Numbered from the stretch's first letter, positions 4,555 to 47,496 are shown. The stretch: 64,000 nt of DNA from Flavobacteriales bacterium (GCA_020435415.1 JAGQZQ010000001.1:26228-90227), one strand, 5' to 3'. The notes: generated by a model from the sequence alone, not told the origin. Numbers and translations: made by a program.

Positions 4555-4563
4555 GGGAAGCGA

Positions 4564-5181: not shown

Positions 5182-5321
5182 GAAGCGCCAAAGGTATAAA
5201 AACCGGGGGACGGGATGGAAAAAAAATACGCGTGGGTAGCTGTTTTTTCTTGCCAACATCACTACATTTGCACGTCCAAAATTAGCCCATAACAAGTAAC
5301 CTGAAGGTAACCCGGTATCAT

Positions 5322-8189: not shown

Positions 8190-8309
8190 GCGTCAAAAGT
8201 ATTTCTAAACGCTTGTATAATTATTTGCGAGTTTTTTTACCTTTGGAGCATTCGATTGTATCCAATTGTTTCTGAATTATTCTTTTAACCCTAACCTAAA
8301 TAATTGATT

Positions 8310-15285: not shown

Positions 15286-16575
15286 ATGAGTACTTTAACC
15301 GCAGAAAGCACACCATTGAAAGTCTCCCAAATGGCCGAGTCACTGATCGGCTCGGAGATCATCAAACTGGCCCAGGAGATCAATGAAAAAATCAGTAAGG
15401 GAGAGAAGGTATACAATCTCACCATCGGTGATTTCAACCCCAAGGTATTCCCCATTCCCTCTGAATTGAAAGAGGAAATCATCCGTGCCATTAATGAGGA
15501 TGAAACCAACTATCCCGTACCCAACGGTATGCCGGCCCTCAGAGGCGCCATTTCCGAATACCTGCAGGCCAGAATGGGTGTAAGCTATAATGAACAGGAG
15601 ATTGTGGTATCCGGAGGTGCAAGGCCCTTGATCTATTCCGCTTATCGCGCCCTGGTAGATGAAGGTGATACCGTATTGTTCCCGGTACCTTCGTGGAACA
15701 ACAACCACTATGCACACATGCTGGGTGCAAAGGCCGTGTGGGTGGAAACCAAGCCGGAAAACAACTTCATGCCTACGGCGGCTGAATTGAAACCGTACAT
15801 TGGAGAGGCAAGCCTCCTGGGACTATGCTCTCCACTTAATCCTACCGGCACCGTATTTACCAAAGAAGCTTTGGAAGAAATCTGCCAGTTGGTTGTCAAG
15901 GAAAATGAAGCTCGTCTGCAAAGCGGAAGGAAACCACTATACCTGCTGTATGATCAGATTTATTGGGTATTAACCCATGGCGATACCGTTCACCATGACC
16001 CGGTAACGATCAATCCTGCCATGCGCCCCTATACCGTTTTTGTTGACGGGATGTCCAAGGCTTTTGCAGCCACAGGGATTCGGGTAGGATGGTCTTTCGG
16101 CCCTGAACGGATCATTCAGAAAATGAAGGGCATCTTATCCCATGTTGGCGCGTGGTCTCCCAAAGCCGAGCAGGTGGCAGCAGGCCGGTACCTGAAACGC
16201 ACAGAAGATGTTGATCGCTTTCTTACAAGCTTTAAAACCGCGGTAATGGACCGTCTGGAAGGTTTTTATAAAGGTTTTTCTGACCTTAAAAGTGAAGGCT
16301 TTCCTGTTGATGCTATTGCTCCGCAAGCTGCCATCTACCTGACTATAAAGATTGATCTGAAAGGAAAAAAATTGCCGGATGGTACGGTGATCAGCACGAC
16401 ACAGCAGACCACCAAATACCTGCTGGAAGAAGCAAAAATGGGCATTGTTCCTTTCAATGCATTCGGTGCATCCAATGACTCCGCCTGGTATCGCCTCTCC
16501 GTTGGCACATGCCGGATGGAAGATGTGGCCGACGCCATTGCCAGTTTACGTAGTGCACTTTCCAAACTTAGCTAA
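15286..16575 (+). CDS. PLP-dependent aminotransferase, class I/II
   Basis: 429 aa with aminotransferase fold motifs (..NPTG.., lysine region DGMSKAF). Confidence 0.75.
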   Translation: MSTLTAESTPLKVSQMAESLIGSEIIKLAQEINEKISKGEKVYNLTIGDFNPKVFPIPSELKEEIIRAINEDETNYPVPNGMPALRGAISEYLQARMGVSYNEQEIVVSGGARPLIYSAYRALVDEGDTVLFPVPSWNNNHYAHMLGAKAVWVETKPENNFMPTAAELKPYIGEASLLGLCSPLNPTGTVFTKEALEEICQLVVKENEARLQSGRKPLYLLYDQIYWVLTHGDTVHHDPVTINPAMRPYTVFVDGMSKAFAATGIRVGWSFGPERIIQKMKGILSHVGAWSPKAEQVAAGRYLKRTEDVDRFLTSFKTAVMDRLEGFYKGFSDLKSEGFPVDAIAPQAAIYLTIKIDLKGKKLPDGTVISTTQQTTKYLLEEAKMGIVPFNAFGASNDSAWYRLSVGTCRMEDVADAIASLRSALSKLS

Positions 16576-17669
16576 TGTCCCAATCAAACAACACTTATTG
16601 CGTGATCATGGCCGGCGGAATCGGAAGCCGCTTCTGGCCGATGAGTCGTTCAAACCGCCCCAAACAGTTCCTGGATATCCTTGGAACCGGAGAAAGTTTA
16701 TTACAGCAGACTTACCGGCGGTTTTTGCCTCTGTGCAAACCGGAAAACATCCTGGTTGTAACGCATGCGTCATACACAGATATGGTGATGCGCCAACTTC
16801 CGGACCTGCCTAAGGAGAATATCCTTGCGGAACCATCCCGCCGGAACACCGCACCGTGCATTGCATTTGCATCATACAAGATCAGTAAGTTCAACCCGAA
16901 TGCCAATATCATCATCGCTCCTTCGGATCATCTGGTAACCAATGAGAAGGAATTCGTAAGGGTGATGGAAACCGCACTTCAGGCTACGGAGAATCAAAAC
17001 CTCCTGGTAACACTTGGAATTAAACCCAGCCGACCCGATACCGGTTATGGATACATCCAGTTTACCCAGGAAAACCTTCCGGACCATGAAGAGGTGCACA
17101 AGGTCAAGACCTTCACCGAAAAACCGGACCTGGACATGGCCCACTACTTCATGGAAAGCGGAGAGTTCCTGTGGAATTCCGGTATGTTTGTATGGAATGT
17201 GAGCAGCATTCTGGAAGCACTGGAAAGATATCTTCCTGAAATCAACGCAGTATTCCTGGAAGGTGTACATGAGTTGAATACACCCGGCGAAGAGGCCTTC
17301 ATCGCCAAAGCCTATGCGGTTTGTAAAAACATCTCCATCGATTACGGTGTGATGGAAAAGGCCGGAAATGTTTTTGTTTTACCGGCCGATTTCGGCTGGT
17401 CCGATCTGGGAACCTGGGGGTCTCTCTATGACCACATGCCCAAAGATTCGAACGGCAATGCCATTGGAGGAAACAACGCCATCCTTTACGATTCAAAGGA
17501 CTGTGTGGTGCAGCTTCCCGGCAATAAGTTGGCCGTACTACAGGGATTAGAAGATTTTATCATCGTGGATTCTGAGAATGCGTTACTCGTCTGCCGCAAA
17601 TCGGAGGAGCAGCAGATCAAGGAGTTTGTGAACGAGGTGAAGGTCAGCCGCGGCGACGAATTTGTGTAA
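16575..17669 (+). CDS. manC: Mannose-1-phosphate guanylyltransferase (GDP-mannose pyrophosphorylase)
   Basis: N-terminus CVIMAGGIGSRFWP...PKQF is the nucleotidyl transferase motif. TAATG stop/start overlap with the upstream gene. Confidence 0.85.
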   Translation: MSQSNNTYCVIMAGGIGSRFWPMSRSNRPKQFLDILGTGESLLQQTYRRFLPLCKPENILVVTHASYTDMVMRQLPDLPKENILAEPSRRNTAPCIAFASYKISKFNPNANIIIAPSDHLVTNEKEFVRVMETALQATENQNLLVTLGIKPSRPDTGYGYIQFTQENLPDHEEVHKVKTFTEKPDLDMAHYFMESGEFLWNSGMFVWNVSSILEALERYLPEINAVFLEGVHELNTPGEEAFIAKAYAVCKNISIDYGVMEKAGNVFVLPADFGWSDLGTWGSLYDHMPKDSNGNAIGGNNAILYDSKDCVVQLPGNKLAVLQGLEDFIIVDSENALLVCRKSEEQQIKEFVNEVKVSRGDEFV

Positions 17670-17688
17670 AAACGCTCTTCATACTGTA

Positions 17689-18807
17689 TTAACCCCTTCT
17701 TATTTCTTCTTCCAACTCCTGTTTCAGTTCATCAATATCCCTTAACTCTTTTTTGAGTTCTTTCGGAATGGATTTGCTGAGTTGGTATTCGCTCACACCC
17801 ATGGGTTTTGACATCCCTTTGAGTGCATACTCCACTACCACACTGTTCTTGGTTGGACATAGCAGGATGCCTATGGTTGGCTTATCATCTTCGCCTTTCA
17901 GCATATCGTCCACTGCGGAAAGATAAAAATTCAACTGCCCGGCATATTCCGGTTTGAATTTATCGATCTTCAGTTCTACTACTACATAGCTCTTCAGACG
18001 GATATGGTAGAATAGCAAATCGATATAAAAATCATCTTCACCCACCTGCAGGTGATATTGCCTGCCAACAAATGCAAAACCTTTACCCAGTTCAATCAGG
18101 AAACGGGTGATATGCTCCATCAACTTATCCTCCAACTCCTTTTCCTTATACTTTTTACTCAAGCCAAGAAAATCAAACACGTAAGGATCTTTGATTGTCT
18201 GTTCGGCGAGTTCGGATTGTGGTGAAGGAAGCAGGTGTTTAAAATTGGTGGACTTGCCTTTGCGCTCCTGTCTCTGATAAAGTCCTGTTTCGATCTGATG
18301 CTCCAATATGGCCCTTGACCAGCCGTATTCAACGCATTGATTGGCATACCATAGCCTTTCCTTGATGTTGTTTGCTTTGTTCATCAAAGCAATGTTATGA
18401 CCCCAGGGCAACTGAGAAACCACCCTATCAAAATTATTCGGATTAACCGCTTCGGTACTTCCGGACAATTCGCCAACAGGCTGTTGGCGAATTGTCTTTT
18501 TGCCAACGGATTGTTGGCGAAACAAATCCGGATAAGTTTCTGCAAACCGCCTCATATAACGCAGATTACTATCTGACAGTCCCTTCATATCCGGAAACTC
18601 CTTTCGCAAATCAGCAGAAAGTGTTTCGGTCACTTTAGCGCCCCACCCTTTTTGTTCTTGCTGTTTGAGGATGGCCTTGCCGATATCCCAGTACAAGCGA
18701 ATCAGCTCGGCATTGGCAGCCAGGGCAGCCCTTATGCGGGCTGAAGCAATTCGTTGCTTCAGGTCTTCCAGTAAACCCAGATATGCTTTTTCCCGGTCAA
18801 CTTTCAT
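17689..18807 (-). CDS. DUF1016/YhcG-family protein with a C-terminal PDDEXK nuclease-like domain
   Basis: The N-terminal region (ARIRAALAANAELIRLYWDIGKAI...) is characteristic of the YhcG family. The C-terminus has a D...ELK PD-(D/E)XK-like core. Confidence 0.65.
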   Translation of the reverse strand: MKVDREKAYLGLLEDLKQRIASARIRAALAANAELIRLYWDIGKAILKQQEQKGWGAKVTETLSADLRKEFPDMKGLSDSNLRYMRRFAETYPDLFRQQSVGKKTIRQQPVGELSGSTEAVNPNNFDRVVSQLPWGHNIALMNKANNIKERLWYANQCVEYGWSRAILEHQIETGLYQRQERKGKSTNFKHLLPSPQSELAEQTIKDPYVFDFLGLSKKYKEKELEDKLMEHITRFLIELGKGFAFVGRQYHLQVGEDDFYIDLLFYHIRLKSYVVVELKIDKFKPEYAGQLNFYLSAVDDMLKGEDDKPTIGILLCPTKNSVVVEYALKGMSKPMGVSEYQLSKSIPKELKKELRDIDELKQELEEEIRRG

Positions 18808-20692: not shown

Positions 20693-21782
20693 TTAGTTTC
20701 TTCCGAATTCCATCAGATACGCCTTGATAAACTCATCCAGATCCCCGTCCATCACATCCTGTACATTGGATGTTTCAATACCCGTACGCAGGTCTTTCAC
20801 CATTTTGTACGGGTGCATGACATAGTTCCTGATCTGGGATCCCCACTCGATCTTCTTCTTCTTACCCTCTTCCTCAGCCAACTTTTCCTGGCGTTTTCTC
20901 AGCTCAAGTTCATATAACTGTGACTTAAGCATTTTAAGCGCTTTCTCCTTATTTCTCAATTGGGAACGTTCCTCCTGGCACTCAATGATCAGGCCGCTGG
21001 GGGCATGTCTCACGCGGACAGCCGTTTCAACCTTGTTTACGTTTTGTCCGCCCGCACCACCGGAACGAAATGTATCCCATGTGATATCGGCATCCTTGAT
21101 CTCGATCTCAATATTATCATCTACCAGGGGGTAGGCATATACCGAAGCAAAGGAGGTATGTCTTTTGTTGGCAGAATCAAACGGGGACAACCGCACCAGG
21201 CGATGCACGCCATTCTCACCTTTGAGGTAACCGTAAGCAAGTGGGCCGTCAAACTCCAGGGAACACGTTTTGATGCCCGCCACATCTCCCTGCAGCAGGT
21301 TCACTTCTTTCACCTTGTAACCGTGCGCTTCCCCCCACATGATGTACATGCGCATAAGCATGGCTGCCCAATCCTGGCTCTCGGTCCCGCCTGCACCCGC
21401 ATTGATCTGAAGGATGGCACCCAATTGATCTTCTTCCTGGGAGAGCATGTTCTTGAATTCAAGATCCTCAACCAGTTTCAGCGTTTTATCGTATTGGGAC
21501 TGCACCTCCTCCTCACTGCTCTCACCCGCCTCATGGAACTCCATGAACACGGCCAGGTCATCAAATGCAGCTGCCGTCTCAAGATATGCTTTGGTCCATA
21601 CCTTAACGGCATTGACTTCCTTCATGACGGCTTCGGCTTTCTTGGGATCGTTCCAAAAATCCGGCTGTTGCGTAATGGCTTCCTTTTCCTTCAGGAATGT
21701 TTGTTTCCCATCGACGTCAAAGATGCCTCCTTAACGCATCCAGGCGCCTCTTCAATTCGTTCTTCTGTTCGTTGGATATCAT
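20693..21782 (-). CDS. prfB: Peptide chain release factor 2, needing a programmed +1 frameshift
   Basis: Frame 0 runs from ATG 21782 through [21 protein letters not shown] to CTT-TGA at 21722-21717. The +1 frame continues from GAC at 21718 as [13 protein letters not shown]...MKEVNAV... to the GGQ-containing body, ending at 20693. This is the classic CTT TGA C shift site, preceded by AGGAGG. Confidence 0.9.
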
Positions 21783-21832
21783 GGGCGCAAAGATAAAATA
21801 ATGTGCTTAAAATCCGCTGGCCTGAATACAGA

Positions 21833-23638: not shown

Positions 23639-23808
23639 CCCTTCAGGGTGAACAATTATTTTCACAGTTTATGTTATCGGGATTTTATTACCTTTGCAGC
23701 CGTTCTTGATTGATAGTCGTAAGTCGCTAGTAGTTAGTAGTAAGTATATAGGCTACCGATGAATGTTATGTTTTTTCGACTAGCGACTAACTACTCAGTA
23801 CTAATTTT

Positions 23809-23889
23809 GGTGCGGTAGCTCAGTTGGTACCTGCCTGCCGTCGCGCAGACCAGGGCATCGGCAGGCAGGGAGCAAAGGACTGAAAATCC
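23809..23889 (+). pseudogene. Truncated second copy of the tRNA-Phe 5' half, with a 40-nt hairpin insertion in the D-loop
   Basis: ggtgcggtagctcagttggta + [cctgcctgccg..18 nt..cggcaggcagg] + gagcaaaggactgaaaatcc matches the 5' half of the real tRNA. After that it diverges and has no T-arm or acceptor 3' strand. A TAATTTTG -7-like motif sits at 23802-23809. Confidence 0.6.
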
Positions 23890-23966
23890 CTCCACACCAT
23901 TAAAGGTTGAGGTATTAAGTAAGGTAGGGATGGTTAATGGTGAGGAATAAGTAAAATATAAATACT

Positions 23967-24039
23967 GGTGCGGTAGCTCAGTTGGTAGAGCAAAGGACTG
24001 AAAATCCTTGTGTCGGGGGTTCGACTCCCTCCCGCACCA
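23967..24039 (+). tRNA. tRNA-Phe (anticodon GAA)
   Basis: Cloverleaf: GGTGCGG acceptor stem, D-arm AGCTCAGTTGGTAGAGC, anticodon loop CTGAAAA, T-arm GGTTCGACTCC, 3' CCGCACCA. Confidence 0.9.
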
Positions 24040-24040
24040 C

Positions 24041-24110
24041 AAAAACAGTTTGGAGCAAGAGCATACAGCATACAGTCCGTGCGGTAAGCTTCCTTGCTCC
24101 AAATTGTTTT
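24041..24110 (+). terminator. Long hairpin followed by a T-run, immediately after tRNA-Phe
   Basis: aaaaacagtttggagcaag ... cttgctccaaattgttttt: a 19-bp stem with one G:T wobble and a 32-nt loop. Confidence 0.5.
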
Positions 24111-24395: not shown

Positions 24396-25703
24396 TCAAA
24401 ACCTCACCCCAATCACCAGGATATCATCCACCTGTTCCTCGCTTCCTTTCCATTTCGTGAATTGTTCTTCAAGGATACGTTTCTGCTCGACGATGTCCTT
24501 GTCATGTATTTCCTTTAAAAGATCTCTGAACTTTTTCGTTTTGAATTTTTTACCCGTCCGTTCCCCGAACTGGTCTGCAAATCCATCGGTAAAGAGATAC
24601 ATCATATCCCCTTCCTGATACGGCACATGTTTGTCCTGAAATTGTTCCACCCCATTGATGTGTTTTCCGGCAATCGGGTAACGATCACCCTCCACTATGT
24701 TAAGTTCTCCTTTTCGGAACATGTACATAGGGCGCATAGCTCCTGCAAAGGCTATGGTCTTCTCCTCCCGATCGATACTGCATAAGCCGATATCCATACC
24801 ATCAGGAGACTCTACCGACTCATGGGCCTGGTTCAATAATTGCCTGATATGCTGATGGAGTTTGTTCAGGATGCCGGCCGGATCAGTCAGACGCTGCCCT
24901 TCCACCAGCAGATTGAGTTGCGTGAAGCCCAGCATTGACATCATAGCGCCCGGTACACCGTGACCCGTGCAATCAGCCACTGCCAGTATATCCCTGTTCC
25001 TGACACTTGCATGCCAGTAAAAATCACCGCTAACGATATCCTTTGGTTTAAAGAAAACAAATGAATTCGGGAGGCTTCCTGCCAATTCCTTTCCCTTTGG
25101 AAGAATCGCACTTTGTATCTTCCGTGCATAGCGAAGGCTTTCTCTGATCAGTTGATTTTGCTCTTCGACCTTTTCCTTTTCCTTCTCCAGATCAATTGTC
25201 CTTGACCGCACCTTTTCCTCCAGGCCCTCGTTCAGTACCTTCAATTCTGAATTAACGGAGTCGAGCATCTTCAAACTATTTTCCAATTCCTGACTCACCC
25301 TTTCCCGCTCCTTCAGCAGGTTTTGACGCTCAATGGCATATCTGATGGACTTCTCCATGAGGTAGTCGTCATATTTTCCCTTCTCCAGGTAATCCTGGGC
25401 ACCCAACTGTATGGCCCTCACTGCGGTCTTATGATCTGACAAACCTGTCATGATGATGATGGGAAGATGCGGGTACTTCTTTTTGATCTCAGTATATCCA
25501 TCCAGATGGGAACTGTCCGGCAGAGACAAATCCAGCAACATCACATCCACGTGGTAGCGTTTTAAGATATCCAGTCCTTCGCTCACCCTACTGGCGATAT
25601 GAAGCGCAGACCCCCTTAGGTTGGTAGAATCGAACAATTCACGAAAGAATTGCTGATCGACCGGGTTATCCTCAATCATCAATATCGACAGATCCCTATT
25701 CAT
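24396..25703 (-). CDS. Response regulator: receiver domain plus PP2C-type Ser/Thr phosphatase (RsbU-like)
   Basis: N-terminal REC (LSILMIEDNPVD..., Asp pocket), a central coiled coil, then a C-terminal PP2C/SpoIIE domain (SGDFYW...DCTGHGVPGAMMSM...FTDG). ATG at 25703 lies 2 nt after the stop of the upstream RR gene. Confidence 0.8.
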   Translation of the reverse strand: MNRDLSILMIEDNPVDQQFFRELFDSTNLRGSALHIASRVSEGLDILKRYHVDVMLLDLSLPDSSHLDGYTEIKKKYPHLPIIIMTGLSDHKTAVRAIQLGAQDYLEKGKYDDYLMEKSIRYAIERQNLLKERERVSQELENSLKMLDSVNSELKVLNEGLEEKVRSRTIDLEKEKEKVEEQNQLIRESLRYARKIQSAILPKGKELAGSLPNSFVFFKPKDIVSGDFYWHASVRNRDILAVADCTGHGVPGAMMSMLGFTQLNLLVEGQRLTDPAGILNKLHQHIRQLLNQAHESVESPDGMDIGLCSIDREEKTIAFAGAMRPMYMFRKGELNIVEGDRYPIAGKHINGVEQFQDKHVPYQEGDMMYLFTDGFADQFGERTGKKFKTKKFRDLLKEIHDKDIVEQKRILEEQFTKWKGSEEQVDDILVIGVRF

Positions 25704-26151
25704 GATTTTTTGGCAATCGGGCAGTCTGGAACCAGAACTGTTCGATTTGTCTGGCCACCTCAAAGAAGTGGTCGAGATCAACAGGTTTTGTGACATAACA
25801 ATTGGCATGATCATTATAACAAGCTTGAATATCCTGCTCGGAGGTGGAGGTGGTAAGTACGACAACCGGAATCTGTCTGAGCTTCTGATCCATCTTGATC
25901 TCTGCAAGCACCTCTCTTCCGTCCTTTTTCGGCAGATTCAGATCCAGCATGATCAGATCCGGTGTGGGTACTCCTTCGTAGCCGGAGATCTTTCTCAGAA
26001 ATTGCAAAGCCTTGATTCCGTCTGTCACTATATGAATATTGAACTCATGGTAATTTCTTTCCATGGCGGTTTGCGTCAGCTCGATGTCCTCCGGGCTGTC
26101 TTCTACAAGCAACACCTGTATGGGGTAATGAGGTTTATTTTCTGTGTCCAT
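25696..26151 (-). CDS. Single-domain CheY-like response regulator
   Basis: 151 aa. VLLVEDSPEDIELT...LIMLDLNLPKKDG...VVVLTTS. is the REC fold. Confidence 0.85.
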   Translation of the reverse strand: MDTENKPHYPIQVLLVEDSPEDIELTQTAMERNYHEFNIHIVTDGIKALQFLRKISGYEGVPTPDLIMLDLNLPKKDGREVLAEIKMDQKLRQIPVVVLTTSTSEQDIQACYNDHANCYVTKPVDLDHFFEVARQIEQFWFQTARLPKNHE

Positions 26152-26159
26152 ATACGGAA

Positions 26160-27353
26160 CTATTTAGGTAACGTGAAATGAAACGTGGTGCCCTTTCCGA
26201 GGCTTGACTCTACCCATATCTCACCGCCATGCTTGGTCACGACTTTCTGGCACATGGCGAGACCGATCCCAGTCCCCTCATATTCCTCTCTGGTATGCAG
26301 TCTTTGAAAGATGATGAATATGCGTTTAAAGAAATCCTCTTCAATCCCAATTCCATTATCCTTGACAAAGAATTGCCAGTAACCATCCACCTCATTGGCG
26401 CCCACTTCTATCACCGGACTCACACCTTCACGCCGGAATTTGATGGCATTGCCGATAAGGTTCTGGAACAGGAGTTGAAGTTGGGCGTTGATTCCCGGAA
26501 CCGTTGGAAGCGGACCGACTTTAATGTGCGCATTGCATTCGGAAATCCGAATCCTGAGATCGGTCATCACCTTCTGAACCAGATCAGCCACGTCTACCTG
26601 CTCAATATCCTCATCATTGGTATTTGAAAGTCTTGAATAGGTCAGAAGGGCTTCTATCAACTGTTTCATCCTCTTGGTTCCATCCACAGCCACATTAATG
26701 TACCGCTCGCCTTTCTCATCCAGCGTATCCTTTATATGGTTTTGCAACAGTTGCAAATAACTTGTAATGGCCCGCAATGGCTCCTGAAGGTCATGGGATG
26801 CCACATAGGCGAATTGCTCCAATTCCCTATTGGATCGTTGCAAGGCTTCGGTGCGCTCCTGTATGCGGATTTCAAGGAACTTATGACTTTGCTTCAACTC
26901 TTGCTCCTGGGTATATTTCTCCACAAAGAACTGAACCTTGTTGAGCAGAACCTGAGGATCGAACGGTTTGGTGATATAGCTGAACGCACCTTTTTCATAG
27001 CCTTTAAATACATTGATGTTTGATGTATAAATGGCTGAGATGAATATGAAAGGCATCCGGGCCGTCTTTTCTTCGGAGCGCAGGATTTCTGCCAACTCAT
27101 ATCCGTCCATCTCAGGCATCTGAATATCCAACAGGGCAAGCGCAAAGTCGTGTCTCAGCGTGAGCTTTAGTGCCTCGTTCCCGCTGCTTGCGCGGAACAG
27201 TTCAACATCAAGGTCCTTCATCAGCCGCTCGAGTGCAATCAGGTTCTCAGGCCTGTCATCAACCATCAGAATTTTGGGCCTGTCAATTCTCAGGTCCTTT
27301 TCAGGACTGGACACCTCATGCGGTTGGTCCATGGTCATCATTCCTTTATCCAT
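26160..27353 (-). CDS. Receiver-histidine kinase fusion (REC + HisKA + HATPase_c)
   Basis: N-terminal REC (ILMVDDRPENL...LLDIQMPEMDG), H-box SHDLQEPLRAI, and a C-terminal ATPase with G-box GTGIGLAMC. The start overlaps the 3' end of the upstream hybrid HK gene. Confidence 0.8.
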   Translation of the reverse strand: MDKGMMTMDQPHEVSSPEKDLRIDRPKILMVDDRPENLIALERLMKDLDVELFRASSGNEALKLTLRHDFALALLDIQMPEMDGYELAEILRSEEKTARMPFIFISAIYTSNINVFKGYEKGAFSYITKPFDPQVLLNKVQFFVEKYTQEQELKQSHKFLEIRIQERTEALQRSNRELEQFAYVASHDLQEPLRAITSYLQLLQNHIKDTLDEKGERYINVAVDGTKRMKQLIEALLTYSRLSNTNDEDIEQVDVADLVQKVMTDLRIRISECNAHIKVGPLPTVPGINAQLQLLFQNLIGNAIKFRREGVSPVIEVGANEVDGYWQFFVKDNGIGIEEDFFKRIFIIFQRLHTREEYEGTGIGLAMCQKVVTKHGGEIWVESSLGKGTTFHFTLPK

Positions 27354-30300
27354 ATTCTCATAAGTGAAAGTAAGCGTTCAATATCCACTGGTTTTGATAT
27401 ATAGTCGTTGGCGCCGGCATCTATGCACTTCTGCCTGTCTTCTTTCATGGCTTTTGCTGTAAGAGCGATAATGGGAAGATTACGGAACTGCGTATTTTTT
27501 CTGATCTCACGCATGCAGTCGTATCCATCCATTTCCGGCATCATGATATCCATCAGGACGATATCCGGGTGCGGTTGTTCCTTGAGTGCTTCGAGGGCCA
27601 CTATACCATTCTCAGCCTTTGAAATAATGAAGCCCTGGTCCTTGAGCACCTTGGACAGTGCGAAAATGTTGCGCATGTCGTCATCAACCAGAAGCACATG
27701 TTTATCGTGAAAGAGTCGTTCCTTGTCATATAAACTGGTGATCATTCCCTGCTTTTTATCCGGGAGGTTGTTCACCGTACGATGCAGGAACAGGGCGGTC
27801 TCATCCAACAAACGTTCTTCGCTTTTCACGCCTTTGATGATGATGGAATCCGCTGACATTCTGAGTTCTTCATTCTCTTCCCTGGTGAGCTCTTTTCCGG
27901 TATACACAATAATGGGCGGGACCTTCTTCTCCTTTTTTCTTTCCTCCAGCATGTGTATCAATTCAAAGCCCGTCATATCCGGCAATCCGATATCCAGCAC
28001 CATACAATCCACCTGCTGGTTATCGAGAATCTCCAGTGCCTGTTTTCCGGTTGACGCTTCAACACATTTCACGTCGCCGTTACCTATCAGTTTTTTAATC
28101 GACTTTCTCATCACGTTGTTATCCTCCACAATGAGGAGGTTCTTCATTTTACGATTGATAAAGTCCTCTATCCTGGAGAATGCTTCTTCCAGCTGCGGTT
28201 TGGTCACAGGCTTGGTCAGGTATTCAAGTGCTCCGGAACGAATAGGATCCAGGGTTTTTTCATTCACAGACATGATGTGCACCGGAATGTGACGTAGTGC
28301 CGGATTTCCCTTTAACTCCTTCAACACCATATGTCCGTCGATGCCCGGCAGATCAATATCCAGCAAAATCGCATGGGGCATAAATTTGGAAGCCAGCGCA
28401 AGTCCGTCTTCACCCGTGGTCGCCGCCAGGTATTTGAATCCTTTTTCATTTGCCTGTTTGGCCAGGACCCGTGCAAAGCCAAGATCATCATCAATGATGA
28501 GCATACATAGATCATCCTTCGTTATCTGATCCCTTTGATCATCAATTCCCGGGACATTCAGATAGCGATTATCCGTAAATGACACCGGCTGTTTAGGTTC
28601 ATGTTTCACCCACACTTCCTCCGCCGGTTTACCGTCCCCTTTGCTTATTATTAGTGGTATTGACAAGGTAAAAGTGGAACCTTTTCCGGCATCACTTTCA
28701 AGGCTGATATTTCCTCCGAGTAGTTTGGCCAACTCACGGGAGATGGACAGCCCCAGGCCGGTACCGCCATATTTACGTGCCGTCCCACCATCGGCCTGTT
28801 GGAAAGCTTCAAAGATCACATCCTGCTTGTCCTTGGGAATCCCTATTCCTGTATCGGAAACCATGACATTCAGATTACTTCCTGCATCTTTCCGGAAGGT
28901 TATTTTCACACTTCCTTCTTCCGTAAACTTCAAGGCATTTGATATCAGATTCTTGATCACCTGATCCATTCTCTGACGGTCGGTTTGAATGGTTTCAGGA
29001 ACGCCATCTTCTACAACCACACTCAAATCCAAACCCTTCTCAGATGCCTGTCTCTTGAAATTCCTCCGAATGTCAGCAGCTATTTCATGTACCGTCACCT
29101 TTGAAATATTCAGGTCCATCTTACCAGCCTCGATCTTGGAAAGATCCAGTATTTCATTGATCAGAATCAGAAGATCCTGTCCGCTTTTGCTAATAACCTG
29201 CGCACTTTCCACCTGATCTTCAGTCAGGTTCTTTTCCTTGTTGGCGGATAAGTCACCGGCAAGAATCAACAAGCTGTTCAGAGGCGTACGCAGTTCATGG
29301 CTCATGTTGGCCAGGAATTCACTTTTGTATTTGCTGCTTATTTCCAGTTGCTTTGCCTTCAGTTCAATATCCGTTCTGGCGGTTTCCAGGTCCTTGTTCT
29401 TTTGCTCCACCACCTGGGTTTGTTCTTCCAGTTCTTCGTTGGCGGCCTGCAGTTCTTCCTGTTGCTCCTTGAGTTTCTGGGCCTGTTCTTCCAACTCCTC
29501 ATTGCTTTGCTGCAATTCCTCCTGCTGGGTTTGCAGCTCACCGTTCAGCTTTTGCATGGCGGCCTGCTGTTCCTTGAGTTCTGTGATCTCAAACCTGACG
29601 GAAATGAATTTTTCGATCTTACCATTGACGTTTAGAATGGGGACAATGGTCGTATCCACCCAATAGTAACTTCCATCTTTGGCCTTGTTGATAATCTCAC
29701 CACTCCATACCCTACCCGTTGTGATGGCTTTCCACATACCCACGAACAAGCCGTCCGGTTGTTTGCCGGACTTAAGCATGCGGTGATTCTGGCCTATTAA
29801 TTCTTCGCGGGGGAACTTGGACACTTTCACAAATCGGTCGTTGACATAGGTGATATTTCCATCCACATCGGTAATGGAGACCAGAGCCACGTCATTCAGT
29901 CCTTCCAGTTGCTGCTCAATCTCCCGTTTGGCATTGGCCAATTGCGTACCTTTTTCCGTAGCTTCATCCAGCAACTGCTGAATCTTCATTTTGGTAATCG
30001 CAGTATTCACTGCCACTCCAAGCGTTTCCATGCTCCCCTTCACAAATTCCAACTGAATTTCTTCGAATGCCTGTGGCTTGCCAAGCTCGATAACCCCGAG
30101 TGAGCGGTCCTCAAACAGGAAGGGACTCACCAGGACGTTCCGCGGTGGTATATCCACCAATGTGGATTTCACCCGGATGCTCTTCTCGTCCACGTCATGG
30201 AGCATGATGGGTTTCTTCGCAGAAGCCACCTGACCAATCAGACCTTCACCCATTCCATACCTGCCGTTGCCATCGCTATTTGAGAATGCATATTTCCCTG

Positions 30301-31276
30301 CGAGTTCCAGGTCATTTCTTTGTTCGTTTTTAAGGTATACCGAACCGATATTGGCCTCCGTGTAATTGGCAATGAATTCGATCACATCATTCACCAGGGT
30401 GGTCACATCCTTATCTCCCTGAATCACATCGCTGAGTTCATTCTTTCCGGTACTCAGCCATTTGTACTGTTGGGTTTCCTGTTCTTTCTTAATCAGCGCG
30501 TCCCTCATGCGAACCATCGCATTTCCAAGCGCTGCCAACTCCGTAGACCCACTCACCGATATATCTGTGTCCAGATTTCCGTCACCAATATTTTCAGCCA
30601 CGTTCACTGCTCTGGCCACGGGCCTCACAATCGAACGCGTAATGAACCATGAGAAAATGATACAGAGTATGGAGAGAAATGCAAGTAGAGACCATTCCAC
30701 CGTGATCATATTACTCAATTGTGCCGTTGTCAGGACCTGATCATCATTCATAAATTTCTCCTGCTTCCGGCGCATGGCGTCTATCAAACCGGTGATCTCC
30801 TTATTGAGATTGACCATTTTACTCTCTATAAGATCTTCGGCGGCCTGCTGGTTGGTTGCGGCAACGTTCTCCACCTCGGTCTGGTACTGGTCTAACGTTT
30901 GCAACAAACCTTCCAGTCGGTTCACCTCATTCACCCAGGCCTCATGCTCCTCCATCTTCACCTTTTCCGTAAGCCCTTTCAACACGGCCATTGGCGGCCT
31001 GATCTCTTCATCCCATATCTTTCTTCGGCCTGACCTGTTGGTATCCTTACCCAGCATCACCCATCCACGAAGCTGGGAAATGCTTTGATGTACGCCTGCC
31101 ATCAATTCCAGGTCGGCATTTAAGGCCGGAGCCCTGAGCGTGTGAAGCCTGTCAGCGGTGGCATCTACATTTTCTGCCATCGAAATGATGATCAATACAG
31201 AAATGATCAGGGAGATGATCATCGCTCCATAACCGAAGCTGATTTTCTTTCCTATCGAGTCAAGCTTGAAATTCAT
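27338..31276 (-). CDS. Large hybrid sensor histidine kinase with an MCP-like sensor + HAMP + GAF + PAS + Q/E-rich coiled coil + HisKA + HATPase_c + three receiver domains
   Basis: 1312 aa. TM1, roughly 150 aa periplasmic helical region, TM2, then a HAMP-like segment. Central GAF/PAS region. Tandem QEELQ(Q/A)(S/A)NEELEEQ repeats. H-box MSHELRTPLNS. G-box GGTGLGLSISRELAKLLGG. Three REC domains (LIIDDD..., LLIVEDN..., LLVDDD...IVLMDIMMPEMDG). Confidence 0.85.
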   Translation of the reverse strand: MNFKLDSIGKKISFGYGAMIISLIISVLIIISMAENVDATADRLHTLRAPALNADLELMAGVHQSISQLRGWVMLGKDTNRSGRRKIWDEEIRPPMAVLKGLTEKVKMEEHEAWVNEVNRLEGLLQTLDQYQTEVENVAATNQQAAEDLIESKMVNLNKEITGLIDAMRRKQEKFMNDDQVLTTAQLSNMITVEWSLLAFLSILCIIFSWFITRSIVRPVARAVNVAENIGDGNLDTDISVSGSTELAALGNAMVRMRDALIKKEQETQQYKWLSTGKNELSDVIQGDKDVTTLVNDVIEFIANYTEANIGSVYLKNEQRNDLELAGKYAFSNSDGNGRYGMGEGLIGQVASAKKPIMLHDVDEKSIRVKSTLVDIPPRNVLVSPFLFEDRSLGVIELGKPQAFEEIQLEFVKGSMETLGVAVNTAITKMKIQQLLDEATEKGTQLANAKREIEQQLEGLNDVALVSITDVDGNITYVNDRFVKVSKFPREELIGQNHRMLKSGKQPDGLFVGMWKAITTGRVWSGEIINKAKDGSYYWVDTTIVPILNVNGKIEKFISVRFEITELKEQQAAMQKLNGELQTQQEELQQSNEELEEQAQKLKEQQEELQAANEELEEQTQVVEQKNKDLETARTDIELKAKQLEISSKYKSEFLANMSHELRTPLNSLLILAGDLSANKEKNLTEDQVESAQVISKSGQDLLILINEILDLSKIEAGKMDLNISKVTVHEIAADIRRNFKRQASEKGLDLSVVVEDGVPETIQTDRQRMDQVIKNLISNALKFTEEGSVKITFRKDAGSNLNVMVSDTGIGIPKDKQDVIFEAFQQADGGTARKYGGTGLGLSISRELAKLLGGNISLESDAGKGSTFTLSIPLIISKGDGKPAEEVWVKHEPKQPVSFTDNRYLNVPGIDDQRDQITKDDLCMLIIDDDLGFARVLAKQANEKGFKYLAATTGEDGLALASKFMPHAILLDIDLPGIDGHMVLKELKGNPALRHIPVHIMSVNEKTLDPIRSGALEYLTKPVTKPQLEEAFSRIEDFINRKMKNLLIVEDNNVMRKSIKKLIGNGDVKCVEASTGKQALEILDNQQVDCMVLDIGLPDMTGFELIHMLEERKKEKKVPPIIVYTGKELTREENEELRMSADSIIIKGVKSEERLLDETALFLHRTVNNLPDKKQGMITSLYDKERLFHDKHVLLVDDDMRNIFALSKVLKDQGFIISKAENGIVALEALKEQPHPDIVLMDIMMPEMDGYDCMREIRKNTQFRNLPIIALTAKAMKEDRQKCIDAGANDYISKPVDIERLLSLMRIWIKE

Positions 31277-31871
31277 GGTGGTTGTTTGATTGTTGGTGTA
31301 CTTTCATAAGTGTTTCGCTTATTTTATCGGGAGAAAGGATGAGGTCGGGCTGGCACGCTTCGATCGCTGCCAGCGGCATATATGGTGACTCAGCGGATTC
31401 CGGACTTTGTGCAATGGTAAACCCGCCATACTCTTTGATCTTCGTTAGGCCACGTGCACCGTCGTTGTTGGCTCCGGTAAGCACAACACCCACCAGGCGC
31501 TCGCGGTAAGCGTCAGCGGCCGTTTCAAATAGGACATCACACGATGGCCTGGCATAACAGACCCTCTCGTCAATAGTGAGGCTCAGGGTACGATCGGTTT
31601 CAACGAGAAGATGATAATTCGGTGGTGCAATGTAGACCGTGCCCGGCATGGCCGTCTCTTTTTCATCCGCTTCCTTGACCCTGATGCGACATTGTTTATC
31701 AAGAATCGTAGGCCAGACGGAACCTGCGTCAGGTGCAATGTGTTGCACAATCAGGATGGTCAAAGAAAAATTCTGAGGCAACGGAACAAGAATCTCACGG
31801 ATCGCCTTCAGGCCACCGGCTGACGCCCCTATAACAAGAGCTTCATATCTTGTTCGCTTATTCAGTTGCAT
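31260..31871 (-). CDS. cheB: Chemotaxis-type protein-glutamate methylesterase, catalytic domain only (no receiver domain)
   Basis: ALVIGASAGGLKA...LIVQHIAPD is the CheB methylesterase active-site region. Only about 203 aa, so there is no N-terminal REC. Start at ATG 31871, overlapping the cheR stop. Confidence 0.8.
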   Translation of the reverse strand: MQLNKRTRYEALVIGASAGGLKAIREILVPLPQNFSLTILIVQHIAPDAGSVWPTILDKQCRIRVKEADEKETAMPGTVYIAPPNYHLLVETDRTLSLTIDERVCYARPSCDVLFETAADAYRERLVGVVLTGANNDGARGLTKIKEYGGFTIAQSPESAESPYMPLAAIEACQPDLILSPDKISETLMKVHQQSNNHHEFQA

Positions 31872-32700
31872 ATCTTTTTTTATAAATCCGCTGTCCTTCG
31901 TCCAACGCTTCAAAATACTTTCCGTACTCTGAAAACATTAATGTCTCTTTGTGTCCAAGACAGAGAATGCCACCTCTGACCAGGCTTTGATGAAATAAAC
32001 GAATGACTTTATTCTGAAGATCTTTATTGAAATATATCAGAACATTGCGGCATACGATCATATTGGTTTCGGTAAAATCCCCGTCAGTCACCAGGTTATG
32101 ATGAGCCCAGACAATGTTTTTTTTCAGGTTGTTATTCATGATCGCCGAATCGTACTTCGCGTAAAAATGATCTGTGAATGAGGCACGCGCTCCACTGGAA
32201 ACATAATTCATGGCATGACGCTTCATCTGCTGGATTGGATAAATACCTTCCCGCGCCTGCTTTACGACATCATAATTGAAATCCGTGGCATATAATTGTG
32301 TGCGGTCATACACTCCTTCCTCGGACAGAAGGATGGCCATGGAATAGACTTCCTCGCCGGTGCTGCATCCGGCGTGCCATATCTTGCAATAGGACCATGT
32401 TTTTAGAAGGGGCACCACCTTTTCCCTGACTGCAGCATAAAACTTCGGGTCCCTGAACATTTCGGTGACATTAATGCTCAGATCTTTCAGAACCTCCGAG
32501 GCAAAAGACGGATCGGCAAGTACGCGGTGCTGAAGCATCGACACGCTCTCCAACCCTGATAATCTGAGGCGTTGGAGAATCCGGCGTTTGACATGCGCCT
32601 TGGAGTAACTCCTGAAATCATAGCCATACCTTTGGAATATGGCTTCCAAAAGCAGAGGTATCTCAATGTCGTTAATATCCGGCTTGCTCACTACTTCCAT
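31858..32700 (-). CDS. cheR: Chemotaxis-type protein-glutamate O-methyltransferase
   Basis: 280 aa with a CheR N-terminal helical domain plus a SAM-dependent MTase (IWHAGCSTGEEVYSMAI). Confidence 0.85.
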   Translation of the reverse strand: MEVVSKPDINDIEIPLLLEAIFQRYGYDFRSYSKAHVKRRILQRLRLSGLESVSMLQHRVLADPSFASEVLKDLSINVTEMFRDPKFYAAVREKVVPLLKTWSYCKIWHAGCSTGEEVYSMAILLSEEGVYDRTQLYATDFNYDVVKQAREGIYPIQQMKRHAMNYVSSGARASFTDHFYAKYDSAIMNNNLKKNIVWAHHNLVTDGDFTETNMIVCRNVLIYFNKDLQNKVIRLFHQSLVRGGILCLGHKETLMFSEYGKYFEALDEGQRIYKKRYATE

Positions 32701-40577: not shown

Positions 40578-41840
40578 TTATCCCAGGATCTCCATCCGCA
40601 CCGAGTCCAGCTTGATGAAGATGAAAAGGAGGATCGTAAAACCCCATAGCGAAGATCCACCATAGCTAAAGAAGGGCATGGGTATTCCAATGACCGGCGC
40701 CAAACCAATGGTCATCCCTATGTTGATGGCAAAGTGAAAAAAAAGAATGGATGCCACCCCATATCCGTATATCCTGCTGAAATGGGAACGCTGTCGTTCT
40801 GCCGCATAGAGTATTCGCAGCATAAGAAACAGAAAAAGGGAGATCACAACGAAACTACCCAGGAAGCCCCACTCTTCTCCCACCGTGCAAAAAATGAAGT
40901 CTGTGCTTTGCTCGGGTACAAAATCATACTTGGTTTGGGTTCCTTTCAGAAAACCTTTCCCGGTTACCCCTCCTGAACCAATTGCGATCTTTGACTGATT
41001 TACGTTATAACCCGCTGCATGAATGTCGGCCTCTTTACCAATCAATACATTGATGCGTTTGCGATGGTGATCGGCCAGAACATTGTCAAAAACATAATCG
41101 ACACTGTACACCAGGCCTGCACAAAGCACAAAGCCTCCGATCACCGCGATGATGTCTGACTTTGACTTTCTGACAAGGTAAACCAGCAACATTGCCACGC
41201 CGGCAAAACAGGCAATAAGGACAAGCTTATCAACCAACAAGGCCAGTATGAACACCAGTGCAAGGCCTGCCCCGATGATCAGGACGTTTCCGGATAGCCC
41301 TTCCCGAAACAACACGAGAACAAATGCGGAATAAACCAAAGACGAACCTGCGTCTCCCTGAAGAACGATAAGGGCCGCCGGAGCCAGGAGAAGGGCAAAG
41401 GACCACATTTTTATTTTCAGGTCCTGAAACTTTATTTCATGAAGCCCGAGGTATCTTGCCAGGGCAAGAGCGGTTGCAAATTTGGCGAACTCCGCCGGCT
41501 GCAGCCGGAATGCACCGATTTCAAACCAGGAACGGGAACCCGCCACCTCTCTTCCGAAAAACAACACGGCCAGCAGCATCGCCAGCGTAATGCCATACAG
41601 GATCATCGAAAAGGACTCCCAGAATTTACTTTCTATCAACAGCAAGGTTAATCCGATCACAAATGCTGTAGCAATCCAGATCATTTGCTTGCCATAGTTC
41701 CTGGATACGTCCAGGATACTCGCATGACTCTCATCATACACCGCCGCATAAATATTCACCCATCCCATGATCACCAGTAACAAGTAGGTTATCACCAACC
41801 ACCAGTCGATCCCTTGCATTATGTTCTTTCTCGTGCGCAT
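40578..41840 (-). CDS. rodA: Rod shape-determining protein RodA (SEDS family)
   Basis: 420-aa polytopic FtsW/RodA/SpoVE family protein, sitting in the mre operon context. Confidence 0.85.
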   Translation of the reverse strand: MRTRKNIMQGIDWWLVITYLLLVIMGWVNIYAAVYDESHASILDVSRNYGKQMIWIATAFVIGLTLLLIESKFWESFSMILYGITLAMLLAVLFFGREVAGSRSWFEIGAFRLQPAEFAKFATALALARYLGLHEIKFQDLKIKMWSFALLLAPAALIVLQGDAGSSLVYSAFVLVLFREGLSGNVLIIGAGLALVFILALLVDKLVLIACFAGVAMLLVYLVRKSKSDIIAVIGGFVLCAGLVYSVDYVFDNVLADHHRKRINVLIGKEADIHAAGYNVNQSKIAIGSGGVTGKGFLKGTQTKYDFVPEQSTDFIFCTVGEEWGFLGSFVVISLFLFLMLRILYAAERQRSHFSRIYGYGVASILFFHFAINIGMTIGLAPVIGIPMPFFSYGGSSLWGFTILLFIFIKLDSVRMEILG

Positions 41841-41851
41841 CGATGCTAAAG

Positions 41852-44983: not shown

Positions 44984-45011
44984 GAAGCCGTACTCCTTTA
45001 CATTCCTTGAA

Positions 45012-46771: not shown

Positions 46772-46864
46772 TAGTTCTTTAATACCATTAGTTTCCTTGT
46801 CTCAACAAATTCGTTTGTTTTCAGCTGGACAAAAATACTTCCACAGGAACCTATAAGCGAATAT

Positions 46865-47404: not shown

Positions 47405-47496
47405 TAGTTCTTTAATACCATTAGTTTCCTTGTCTCAACAAATTCGTTTGTTTTCAGCCGGATAAAATACTTCCACAGGAATCTATAAGCGAATAC

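Follow-up and report, generated by a model that had tools for sequence, protein, structure and literature searches.

The six minus-strand genes that occupy positions 24396 to 32700 of the 64,000-nucleotide stretch of Flavobacteriales DNA analysed here (the window) are a phosphatase-output variant of a widespread signalling module that has already been named cfcABCDE in Pseudomonas. The operon, first pointed out in an earlier note on this DNA, is not of an unknown kind: its layout matches that of P. putida cfcABCDE and the gene context of P. alkylphenolica BmsA, and the arrangement is widespread across phyla. To the fuller reading, in which this Flavobacteriales version of a cfcABCDE/BmsA-type module is a two-component pathway that adopted adaptation enzymes without chemoreceptors, CheA or CheW, and that operates by the five-step mechanism outlined below, we assign a probability of about 0.55.

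The genes and the sites within them that are relevant to this proposal are the following.

31858 to 32700, minus strand: cheR (280 aa), a CfcB-like protein-glutamate methyltransferase (Pfam CheR_N and CheR, E = 2e-40)
31260 to 31871, minus strand: cheB (203 aa), a CfcC-like receiver-less methylesterase/deamidase (Pfam CheB_methylest only, E = 5e-57)
27338 to 31276, minus strand: HK1 (1312 aa), a CfcA/BmsA-type membrane hybrid histidine kinase (Pfam)
29327 to 29554, minus strand: acidic heptad coiled coil of HK1 (aa 575-650), the putative methyl-accepting region
29426 to 29536, minus strand: two QQEELxxxNEELEE blocks of HK1, with EE pairs at aa 586/587, 593/594, 607/608 and 614/615
29297 to 29299, minus strand: codon of the phospho-accepting His660 of HK1, in the H-box ANMSHELRTPL
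27362 to 28513, minus strand: three tandem receiver domains of HK1 (aa 922-1305; Pfam Response_reg, three stretches)
26160 to 27353, minus strand: HK2 (397 aa), a REC-HisKA-HATPase protein and CfcD-like second kinase (Pfam)
25696 to 26151, minus strand: RR151, a single-domain Rcp-type receiver (Pfam Response_reg)
24396 to 25703, minus strand: REC-PP2C (435 aa), a SiaA-like Ser/Thr phosphatase output (Pfam Response_reg and SpoIIE)
24316 to 24338, minus strand: terminator-like hairpin at the operon end (9-bp stem, then a T-rich tail), 58 nt past the PP2C stop

All six co-directional open reading frames, with the overlapping or abutting ends and the domains that the earlier note had described, were confirmed. 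The genes are translationally coupled: four junctions are overlaps (14, 17, 16 and 8 nt) and the remaining one is a gap of 8 nt. Two start codons were corrected in the process: gene calls on metagenome contigs place the most likely cheB start at 31871, which gives the protein of 203 aa and the 14-nt overlap with cheR, and that of the REC-PP2C gene was moved to 25703 (435 aa). No other terminator-like site was found on the minus strand between 23600 and 33100, hence none lies within the operon, and the genes on either side encode unrelated housekeeping functions. The operon is genuine, and CheR and CheB are its only chemotaxis-type parts. Among the ~50 open reading frames of the window, Pfam detected no CheW, MCPsignal, CheA-type or Hpt domain (HK1 included), and phmmer searches of the window with E. 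coli CheW and the Tsr signalling domain gave no match, in keeping with the claim that CheA, CheW and a stand-alone MCP are all missing there. The description of the host as T9SS-bearing also agrees with the type IX C-terminal sorting domains found in two window proteins.

The large kinase was found by Pfam and inspection of its translation to consist of a transmembrane helix, a periplasmic helical domain, a second transmembrane helix, HAMP, GAF, PAS, the acidic coil, HisKA-HATPase and three receivers, as expected from its prior description as a 1312-aa hybrid kinase; the translation shows both hydrophobic segments, as well as the acidic pocket Asp, the Thr/Ser and the Lys of the receivers. Its N-terminus had been called MCP-like, and this holds for the two transmembrane helices and the HAMP domain; the periplasmic domain (aa 1-219) has no significant Pfam match of its own, CHASE3 included, and is only homologous (E = 1e-28) to that of a Fulvivirga orthologue which matches 4HB_MCP_1. 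A Flavobacterium orthologue of HK1 carries CHASE3.

The Q/E-rich coil reported ahead of the H-box is present (44% E+Q and a net charge of -11 over 80 aa), and when compared with other kinases the acidic coil stands out at 38% E+Q and a net charge of -10.5, against 17% and -0.2. It is near-identical across phyla, with a conservation of 3.09 bits per column that is comparable to the H-box, making it as conserved as the catalytic boxes. Its insertions and deletions are multiples of 7 aa, and the distance from the coil Asn to the phosphorylated His equals 5 mod 7 in 137 of 137 kinases, which amounts to a constant heptad register with the phospho-histidine. The EE pairs recur every 7 residues at heptad positions b and c, position d being Leu and position a Asn or Gln, and are preceded by an invariant QQ, so the HK1 coil displays heptad-spaced Glu/Gln pairs on an exposed coiled-coil face, a feature of MCPs. 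The consensus for MCP methylation sites is EExxA[ST], or [ASTG]2-xx-[EQ]2-xx-[ASTG]2 (the Alexander-Zhulin pattern); the first occurs in only 14% and the full second pattern in 1% of 135 family coils, and HK1 itself has EELQAA and EELQQS. An MCP-type four-helix hairpin with a signalling tip was not found in HK1, which has no MCPsignal domain and whose coil is a single helix that runs into the kinase in fixed heptad phase with the His, not one arm of an antiparallel hairpin.

Comparative genomics was used to ask, from two directions, which proteins travel with these enzymes. In a forward scan based on CheR, covering 53 genome loci from many phyla, a GAF-coil-kinase-REC protein was encoded in the same locus as CheR in 44, with variable gene order. 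Four of the nine loci that had no kinase place CheR at a contig end or on a very short contig; five loci of the Thioploca/Beggiatoa type contain CheR and CheB with no kinase nearby, which counts against the kinase as the target. In a reverse scan of 120 metagenome loci, selected by a DNA pattern of the coil motif alone, GAF-plus-kinase proteins accounted for 96 of the 107 motif-bearing open reading frames, and of the 26 loci with 1.5 kb or more on each side of the motif, 24 encode CheR or CheB (12 of the 13 with 3 kb or more). Some minimal loci contain CheR, CheB and HK1 and nothing more, leaving HK1 as the one constant partner. The module is found in at least ten phyla, among them Bacteroidota, several classes of Proteobacteria, Deinococcota, Firmicutes, Planctomycetes and Omnitrophota. 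A related coil also occurs in CheB-CheR fusion proteins, for which we know of no characterised case: when 30 of these were retrieved with a query that left out the coil, 27 had at least 3 NEEL-type heptads.

The two-way association of CheR/CheB with the coil motif and the related coil in the fusion proteins make HK1 the best candidate methyl-acceptor, as the earlier note had suggested, and direct methylation of its coil would be the best-supported mechanism on these sequence comparisons. Sensing by HK1 would involve the helical domain in the periplasm together with the GAF and PAS domains in the cytoplasm, and would be followed by autophosphorylation on His660. CheR would methylate exposed Glu pairs of the rigid QQEELxxxNEELEE coil, which connects the sensor domains to the catalytic helix, and the receiver-less CheB would strip these methyl groups and may deamidate neighbouring Gln. 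Methylation is predicted to alter the charge and stability of the coil and so to set or adapt kinase output. We put at a little short of even odds the proposal that CheR and CheB directly methylate and demethylate this coil, in which case HK1-family kinases and CheB-CheR fusions would make up a second class of methyl-accepting sensory proteins, one independent of MCPs; no experiment showing methylation of any HK1-family kinase was found in the literature examined. If true, chemotaxis-style adaptation or memory would extend to ordinary two-component pathways, also in non-motile bacteria. The question is narrowed to ~40 residues and four Glu pairs that are open to mutation or mass-spectrometric mapping, either in this organism or in the experimentally tractable P. 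putida.

The methylation of glutamates by CheR and CheB is a textbook feature of chemoreceptors, and essentially no substrates of these enzymes are known outside that setting. This absence of a demonstrated substrate is the sole ground for regarding the two proteins as inactive pseudo-enzymes retained as scaffolds, an account we find scarcely credible given that sequence comparison shows the catalytic residues of both the methyltransferase and the methylesterase to be kept. CheR is closest in the Protein Data Bank to B. subtilis CheR (5FTW), has a basic alpha2 helix, and is 60-73% identical to CheRs of other phyla, which indicates strong purifying selection. In MCPs, it is the acidic methylation helix that this basic helix touches. 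CheR also conserves its SAM-binding motif and the counterparts of R98 and Y235 (catalytic residues named after PMC3447774), and the Ser-His-Asp triad motifs of CheB (GASAGG, QHI and NNDG) match those of CheB proteins of solved structure in alignments. It is also very improbable that CheR and CheB serve conventional chemoreceptors encoded elsewhere in the genome, with their adjacency to the kinase reflecting co-regulation only. The inspected DNA covers 64 kb of that genome, and a CheW gene lies near one related locus (L143) and an MCP gene near another (L162), but neither CheW nor MCP gave a match in the window or in the remaining ~170 related loci, synteny with a coil-bearing kinase holds in both search directions and across phyla, and the orthologous pair of P. 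putida has been excluded from chemotaxis. Flavobacteriales, to our knowledge, generally have no CheA, CheW or MCPs.

More weight is due to two other accounts. It is unlikely that CheR and CheB modify a target other than the coil (e.g. HK2, a receiver domain, the GAF/HAMP region or the output protein), the coil being conserved merely as a signal-transmitting helix. Coiled-coil linkers ahead of the H-box are common in kinases, the MCP site consensus does not fit this coil, and an HK2-type REC-kinase accompanies CheR in 41 of the 53 genome loci; set against this are the minimal CheR-CheB-HK1 loci, a coil far more conserved and acidic than the linkers of other kinases, the recurrence of NEEL heptads in CheB-CheR fusions despite their different kinase context, and the retention by CheR of its basic alpha2 helix. 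We judge it unlikely, too, that kinase methylation is real but is a slow set-point or maturation mark and not a fast reversible adaptation, with CheB optional and acting mainly as a deamidase. No CheB is encoded in 24 of the 53 genome loci, among them that of Deinococcus deserti and most of those of Pedobacter, which fits poorly with reversible adaptation; the CheB of this operon was confirmed by Pfam to be without a receiver, as had been claimed, so it would receive no phospho-feedback; and the invariant QQ ahead of the EE pair is consistent with such a role. However, in loci that have CheB, its gene is translationally coupled to cheR and its catalytic triad is intact, which argues for a working methylation/demethylation cycle in this operon.

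Downstream of HK1, the remaining proteins suggest a second tier of phosphotransfer. What had been described as a REC-kinase fusion and a CheY-like response regulator are indeed a REC-HisKA-HATPase protein and a single receiver, but the latter is specifically of the phytochrome (Rcp) type, and the tier that leads from a REC-kinase to an Rcp-type regulator had been missed. The kinase core of HK2 (H-box SHDLQEPLR) is phytochrome-type and closest to bacteriophytochrome kinases (8AVV, 8e-44), and the closest solved structures to RR151 are the phytochrome response regulators RcpA and Rcp1 (2e-39). The HK2 receiver belongs to the 'VDDRPENL...LLDIQMPEMDG' type that is common to output regulators of other loci (99-145 bits). 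From this similarity of receiver type, and by analogy with CfcA and CfcD of P. putida, phosphorylated HK1 would phosphorylate the HK2 receiver, after which HK2 would signal to RR151, its Rcp-type partner, and probably to REC-PP2C, although the receiver of the latter resembles neither the type served by HK1 nor RR151.

The PP2C Ser/Thr phosphatase named as the output is intact by Pfam and motif alignment: it matches PDB 6K4E at 6e-44 with the SGDFY, DCxGHG, TDG and DDI motifs aligned and the metal-binding Asp motifs kept, and scores 224 bits against NCBIfam SiaA, under the equivalog cut-off of 700 bits. This SiaA-like enzyme would dephosphorylate a phospho-Ser/Thr protein encoded elsewhere. The suggestion that it feeds a partner switch is only a guess; no STAS, anti-sigma or SiaB/SiaC-like gene is present in the window; nor was any of these, or a cognate Ser/Thr kinase, found in the operon, the window or the locus of the nearest relative.

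The closest described system is that of Pseudomonas. P. putida CfcA has a CHASE domain between two transmembrane helices, a GAF domain, a kinase and three receivers; it activates a c-di-GMP regulator, with salt as the reported stimulus, and the cfcABCDE cluster includes a CheR/CheB pair for which a chemotaxis role has been ruled out and no target is known, plus a second kinase, CfcD, that carries a receiver. Mutants in the other cfc genes were reported, as unpublished work, to keep the crinkly-colony phenotype, which speaks against the mechanism proposed here. In P. alkylphenolica, the BmsA orthologue sits in a CheR-CheB-hybrid-kinase context. The present operon shares with these a membrane-bound hybrid kinase in which two transmembrane helices flank a periplasmic helical sensor and are followed by GAF, a kinase core and three receivers; a CheR and a receiver-less-type CheB clustered with that kinase in the absence of CheA, CheW and MCP; and a second, receiver-bearing kinase (HK2, like CfcD). 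The ANMSHELR of the HK1 H-box is identical to the peptide encoded by the H496A mutagenic primer for CfcA; a homology search with a HAMP-GAF query gave no match, so the comparison with CfcA is by description and this peptide only. The operon differs in having an in-operon REC-PP2C in place of the unlinked REC-GGDEF-EAL protein CfcR, an extra PAS domain in HK1, a periplasmic domain that receives no CHASE3 call by Pfam, a phytochrome-type HK2 core with an Rcp-type partner, and a non-flagellated Bacteroidota host. The Pseudomonas module controls c-di-GMP and biofilm formation, whereas the PP2C variant would wire the same adaptable sensor front end to protein dephosphorylation.

Other systems are related in part. 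Chemosensory/ACF pathways such as Wsp (MCP-CheW-CheA-CheR-CheB with REC-GGDEF) likewise use CheR/CheB, direct non-motility outputs through receiver-domain proteins and place acidic pairs with heptad spacing on an exposed helix face, whereas the operon has no MCP signalling domain, CheW, CheA or HPt, its CheB has no receiver, and its candidate acceptor consists of one helix, collinear with a HisKA kinase, that falls outside the MCP site consensus. CheB-CheR-PAS-histidine kinase fusions, which are annotated in sources as 'two-component system, chemotaxis family, CheB/CheR fusion protein', also tie the methylation enzymes to a histidine kinase and not to an MCP and have a conserved NEEL-type heptad coil, but they hold enzymes, coil and kinase in one polypeptide and their coil reads NEELQSxNEE in place of QQEELxxxNEELEE. 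Cyanobacterial Cph1-Rcp1 pairs resemble HK2 and RR151 most closely in kinase core and regulator, although HK2 has no photosensory PAS-GAF-PHY module and is instead under the control of a receiver at its N-terminus. The closest PP2C domain is that of SiaA (6K4E), from the SiaABCD system of P. aeruginosa, and RssB and HsbR-type regulators have a similar REC-PP2C layout; the operon differs from SiaA/RsbU/HsbR-type systems by the missing SiaB/SiaC, STAS and anti-sigma genes, and from SiaA in that the phosphatase input is a receiver and not HAMP. Among modules with this CheR/CheB-kinase front end, the usual output is REC-GGDEF(-EAL) and a PP2C output is rare; the nearest Flavobacteriales relative has the same six-gene order, with a REC-PAS-PP2C protein in the PP2C position.

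Positions 32700 to 24396 of the minus strand contain a head-to-tail run of six open reading frames (ORFs). ORF and Pfam analysis confirmed the gene content that an earlier note had proposed for this operon, namely CheR, CheB, a hybrid kinase, a REC-kinase, a receiver and a PP2C phosphatase.

Genes of the operon (32700 to 24396), in order from CheR
CheR, 280 aa, minus strand: Pfam CheR_N and CheR domains
CheB, start 31871, minus strand: Pfam CheB_methylest domain, no receiver
HK1, 1312 aa, minus strand: membrane hybrid histidine kinase with Pfam HAMP, GAF, PAS, HisKA and HATPase_c domains and three Response_reg stretches
HK2, 397 aa, minus strand: Pfam REC-HisKA-HATPase_c kinase
RR151, 151 aa, minus strand: single receiver by Pfam
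REC-PP2C, start 25703, minus strand: Pfam Response_reg and SpoIIE (PP2C) domains

None of the six proteins matched an NCBIfam equivalog at or above its cut-off. The likeliest CheB start, 31871, follows the gene calls of two metagenome contigs that encode an identical CheR; given this start and that of the PP2C protein at 25703, the gene junctions comprise overlaps of 14, 17, 16 and 8 nt plus one gap of 8 nt. A terminator-like hairpin lies 58 nt past the final operon stop, none was found on the minus strand within the operon, and a scan for σ70 promoters was uninformative (9 sites versus 13.9 expected). The neighbors are unrelated, with a T9SS-sorted protein, recX, prfB, arsC and fumarase on one side and coaX plus unknown ORFs on the other. 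A 103-aa ORF located 3' of the PP2C gene (23791..24102) was rejected as a STAS/SiaC partner, as it has no Pfam match and lies past the terminator.

[quoted passage not shown] The host was correctly recognized as a T9SS-bearing Bacteroidetes, since NCBI assigns an identical CheR to a Flavobacteriales MAG and two window proteins contain T9SS sorting domains.

At the sequence level, the active sites of the operon enzymes are intact. In alignments with solved CheR structures, the window protein keeps the SAM-binding CSTGEEVYS motif plus the FRD Arg and IYF Tyr, which correspond to the catalytic residues R98 and Y235 (PMC3447774), and its α2 helix is strongly basic. CheB retains the motifs of its Ser-His-Asp triad, so the predicted catalytic residues of both proteins speak against their being inactive pseudo-enzymes. 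Similarly, the PP2C domain aligns end to end with P. aeruginosa SiaA (PDB 6K4E, 6e-44) and keeps the Asp-containing motifs, in agreement with the phosphatase output first proposed, and every receiver of the operon has the acidic pocket, Thr/Ser and Lys when its translation is inspected by eye.

Comparison with Pseudomonas places this operon within a known and genetically characterized kind of system. An orthologue of BmsA in Pseudomonas has cheR, cheB and a hybrid kinase gene as its neighbors; in P. putida KT2440 this cluster is cfcABCDE, and the hybrid kinase is the product of cfcA (PP_3761). The REC-GGDEF-EAL regulator CfcR, whose receiver is 48% identical to that of CfcD, depends on CfcA His496 for its activity, and the primer used to introduce H496A codes for ANMS(H)ELR, the H-box of HK1. 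The CheR/CheB pair of the P. putida cluster has no role in chemotaxis, and mutants in other cfc genes keep the crinkly phenotype (reported as unpublished). An account citing Tagua 2022 gives CfcA a CHASE domain in the periplasm, flanked by two TM helices, together with GAF, a kinase core and three receivers, and reports a response to salt. A HAMP-GAF homology query aimed at Pseudomonas CfcA gave no match in a database that is apparently poor in long proteins (fusion-search matches were all ≤731 aa). Therefore, from the gene make-up, the CfcA architecture and the H-box match, we assign the window operon to the cfc/BmsA kind with a probability of roughly 0.85; within the cfcABCDE/BmsA module it represents a Bacteroidota variant with a PP2C output, and not a new system.

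The module is widespread. Homologs 60-73% identical to the window CheR occur in Flavobacteriales, Fulvivirga, Rhodohalobacter, Marinobacterium, Methylophaga and Bowmanella, and the Fulvivirga and Flavobacterium loci have the order CheR-CheB-hybrid kinase-REC-kinase. A genome scan with CheR as query (one genome per species), in which locus contents were assigned from our own ORF calls and phmmer searches with window domains, yielded 53 loci from Bacteroidota, Gammaproteobacteria (Thioploca, Coxiellaceae, Legionellaceae), Desulfobacterota, Alphaproteobacteria, Planctomycetes, Firmicutes, Ignavibacteria, Omnitrophota, Bdellovibrionota and Myxococcia. A GAF-coil-kinase-REC(1-3) hybrid kinase shares the locus with CheR in 44 of the 53, in variable gene order; a REC-kinase is present in 41 and CheB in 29. 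The nine loci that have no hybrid kinase consist of four in which CheR lies at a contig end or on a very short contig and five of the Thioploca/Beggiatoa type. In the latter (L011 and L013-L016, from Thioploca, Beggiatoa and Thiotrichales), a closely related CheR-CheB pair (56-57% identity) is found, with no family kinase in the available flanks. Relatives also occur in 86 plasmid or chromid records, including Deinococcus deserti plasmid 2 (L182), which encodes hybrid kinase-CheR-kinase-diguanylate cyclase. A coil-bearing kinase and CheR occur without CheB at 24 of the 53 genome loci, including Pedobacter and relatives (L032-L057), and likewise on the Deinococcus plasmid. Apparent CheR fusions of 1177-1941 aa in high-GC contigs (L123, L135, L156) are artefacts of the simple ORF caller and were not counted.

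Hybrid kinases of four phyla have in common a near-identical acidic segment upstream of the H-box, which consists of QQEELQQSNEELEEQ, 7 or 14 aa, QQEELQAANEELEEQ, about 30 aa, and KYKSEFLANMSHELRTPL. Among 77 non-redundant full-length kinases, this coil is conserved at 3.09 bits per column, compared with 3.5 for the H-box, 3.7 for the G-box, 1.6-2.3 for GAF and 1.1-1.7 for the periplasmic domain. When 27 diverse members were aligned, the coil indels measured 7 or 14 residues, and the spacing between the conserved Asn and the phospho-His (33, 40, 47, 54, 68, 75 or 82 residues) equals 5 mod 7 in 137 of 137 distinct sequences; it follows that the coil forms one unbroken helix whose phase relative to the catalytic His does not change. 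Within the heptad, position d is Leu, a is Asn, Gln or a small residue, b/c and e/f carry successive EE pairs, and g/a is an invariant QQ. The 80 residues before the H-box average 38% E+Q with a net charge of -10.5 across the family, versus 17% and -0.2 in 85 other kinases of these loci. The PAS domain of HK1 (29573..29884) is an insertion that most family members lack, and contains a segment, GQNHRMLKSG, which we take to resemble the LOV motif GxNCRFLQ with His replacing the photoactive Cys.

The coil had been described at the outset as Q/E-rich, and this description stands. The segment is acidic, conserved and in phase, and, like an MCP methylation helix, it has exposed acidic pairs one heptad apart beside Gln. 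However, the kinase lacks the MCP signalling domain and antiparallel hairpin. Just 14% of family coils match EExxA[ST], the classic consensus for MCP sites, and 1% the longer pattern [ASTG]2-xx-[EQ]2-xx-[ASTG]2, a result on which the coil was rejected as a canonical MCP methylation helix. The resemblance is one of function and not of family membership.

Across phyla, CheR/CheB and the coil-bearing kinase are associated in both directions, as seen by combining the CheR-based scan with a reverse search of metagenome contigs, in which a degenerate DNA pattern encoded only QQEE[L/F]xxxNEE[L/F]EE and no CheR. This search returned 120 loci; in 107 of them a retained ORF carried the motif, and 96 of these 107 ORFs encode GAF-plus-kinase proteins with the same domain layout. 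CheR or CheB was present in 24 of 26 loci with at least 1.5 kb on each side of the kinase gene, and in 12 of 13 when each flank was at least 3 kb. Two metagenome contigs are the sole related loci with a CheW or MCP gene near a coil-bearing kinase: one has CheW by a 495-aa CheR that is possibly a CheR-TPR (L143), and the other an MCP (L162). In a Flavobacterium locus, a CheB-CheR-PAS-kinase fusion contains six consecutive heptads, NEELQSANEEIVSSNEELQSLNEELETSKEEIESTNEEL, soon after the CheR domain, and a search using CheR plus the following domain, with the coil left out of the query, showed that 27 of the 30 fusion homologs reaching at least 70 residues past the query end carry three or more of these heptads, 45-60 residues downstream. 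Thus, two architectures join CheR/CheB with a NEEL-type acidic heptad coil, one in cis and the other in trans. In Flavobacterium cellulosilyticum (L005, 1..9858), a CheB-CheR-PAS-kinase fusion and another hybrid kinase, of CHASE3-PAS type and with a receiver of its own, lie within 10 kb upstream of a cfc-like cluster, a gene set that suggests a local concentration of methylation-linked kinases.

These observations provide a concrete, testable candidate for a methylation site, in that CheR and CheB may tune the kinase by acting on the coil's EE pairs, a proposal to which we assign about even odds. The main rival is that the two enzymes modify some other site within the module and not the coil; in the accessible literature on cfc/BmsA-type CheR/CheB, the methylated substrate is nowhere stated, and full-text searches on CheR/CheB with a kinase, Bacteroidetes, a fusion or CheA absence found nothing relevant. 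In a softer variant, methylation would not provide adaptation but act as a slow set-point mark. This variant is favored by the many loci without CheB (24/53), with which reversible adaptation is hard to reconcile. With the coil EE pairs as candidate, the question of which substrates are methylated by non-chemotactic CheR/CheB pairs is sharpened.

The output of the module also varies. At other loci, in-cluster outputs are mostly REC-GGDEF-EAL or REC-GGDEF, with REC-LytTR in the Pedobacter type; the Marinobacterium locus (CheR-CheB-hybrid kinase-REC-kinase-RR-REC-GGDEF-EAL) has the layout of the window operon except that GGDEF-EAL replaces PP2C in the final gene. A REC-PP2C output was also found at one Omnitrophota locus, and the nearest relative, a Flavobacteriales MAG (L179; CheR 73% identical), has six genes in the same order, the last encoding REC-PAS-PP2C. 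Another Flavobacteriales genome has CheR-CheB-kinase alone. The outputs elsewhere and the L179 gene order indicate that the PP2C output is a rare variant conserved within one lineage, and its target is probably a phospho-Ser/Thr protein encoded elsewhere in the genome. Three REC-PAS-PP2C paralogs surround the L179 operon (4287..9669 and 16572..18230), two upstream and one as its last gene.

In P. putida, signalling from kinase to regulator is direct; CfcA~P reportedly phosphorylates both CfcR and CfcD, with the CfcA receivers dispensable and CfcD acting negatively. For the window operon, HK1 would phosphorylate the HK2 receiver, and HK2 would then signal to RR151 and probably also to the PP2C protein. 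This two-tier wiring is proposed because HK2 and output regulators of other loci have in common a VDDRPENL...LLDVQMPEMDG receiver type (99-157 bits mutually), to which the receivers of RR151 and the window PP2C do not belong (29-52 bits), and because bacteriophytochrome kinases are the closest matches of the HK2 kinase core, and Rcp1/RcpA those of RR151.

The remaining window content is that of an ordinary chromosome, as judged from gcvP, feoB, mfd, purH and an intact minus-strand cell-shape cluster, mreB-mreC-(169-aa ORF)-PBP2-rodA (40578..46034). Three tandem paralogous ORFs of 179 aa each (46232..48036, minus strand; 77-81% mutual identity) have a lipoprotein-like signal, LLQGC, and no significant Pfam family, with only a weak match to DUF6252. 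The release factor 2 gene, prfB (20693..21800, minus strand), contains a classic programmed +1 frameshift near 21722, where a short ORF ends CTT TGA C and the RF-2 frame goes on in +1.
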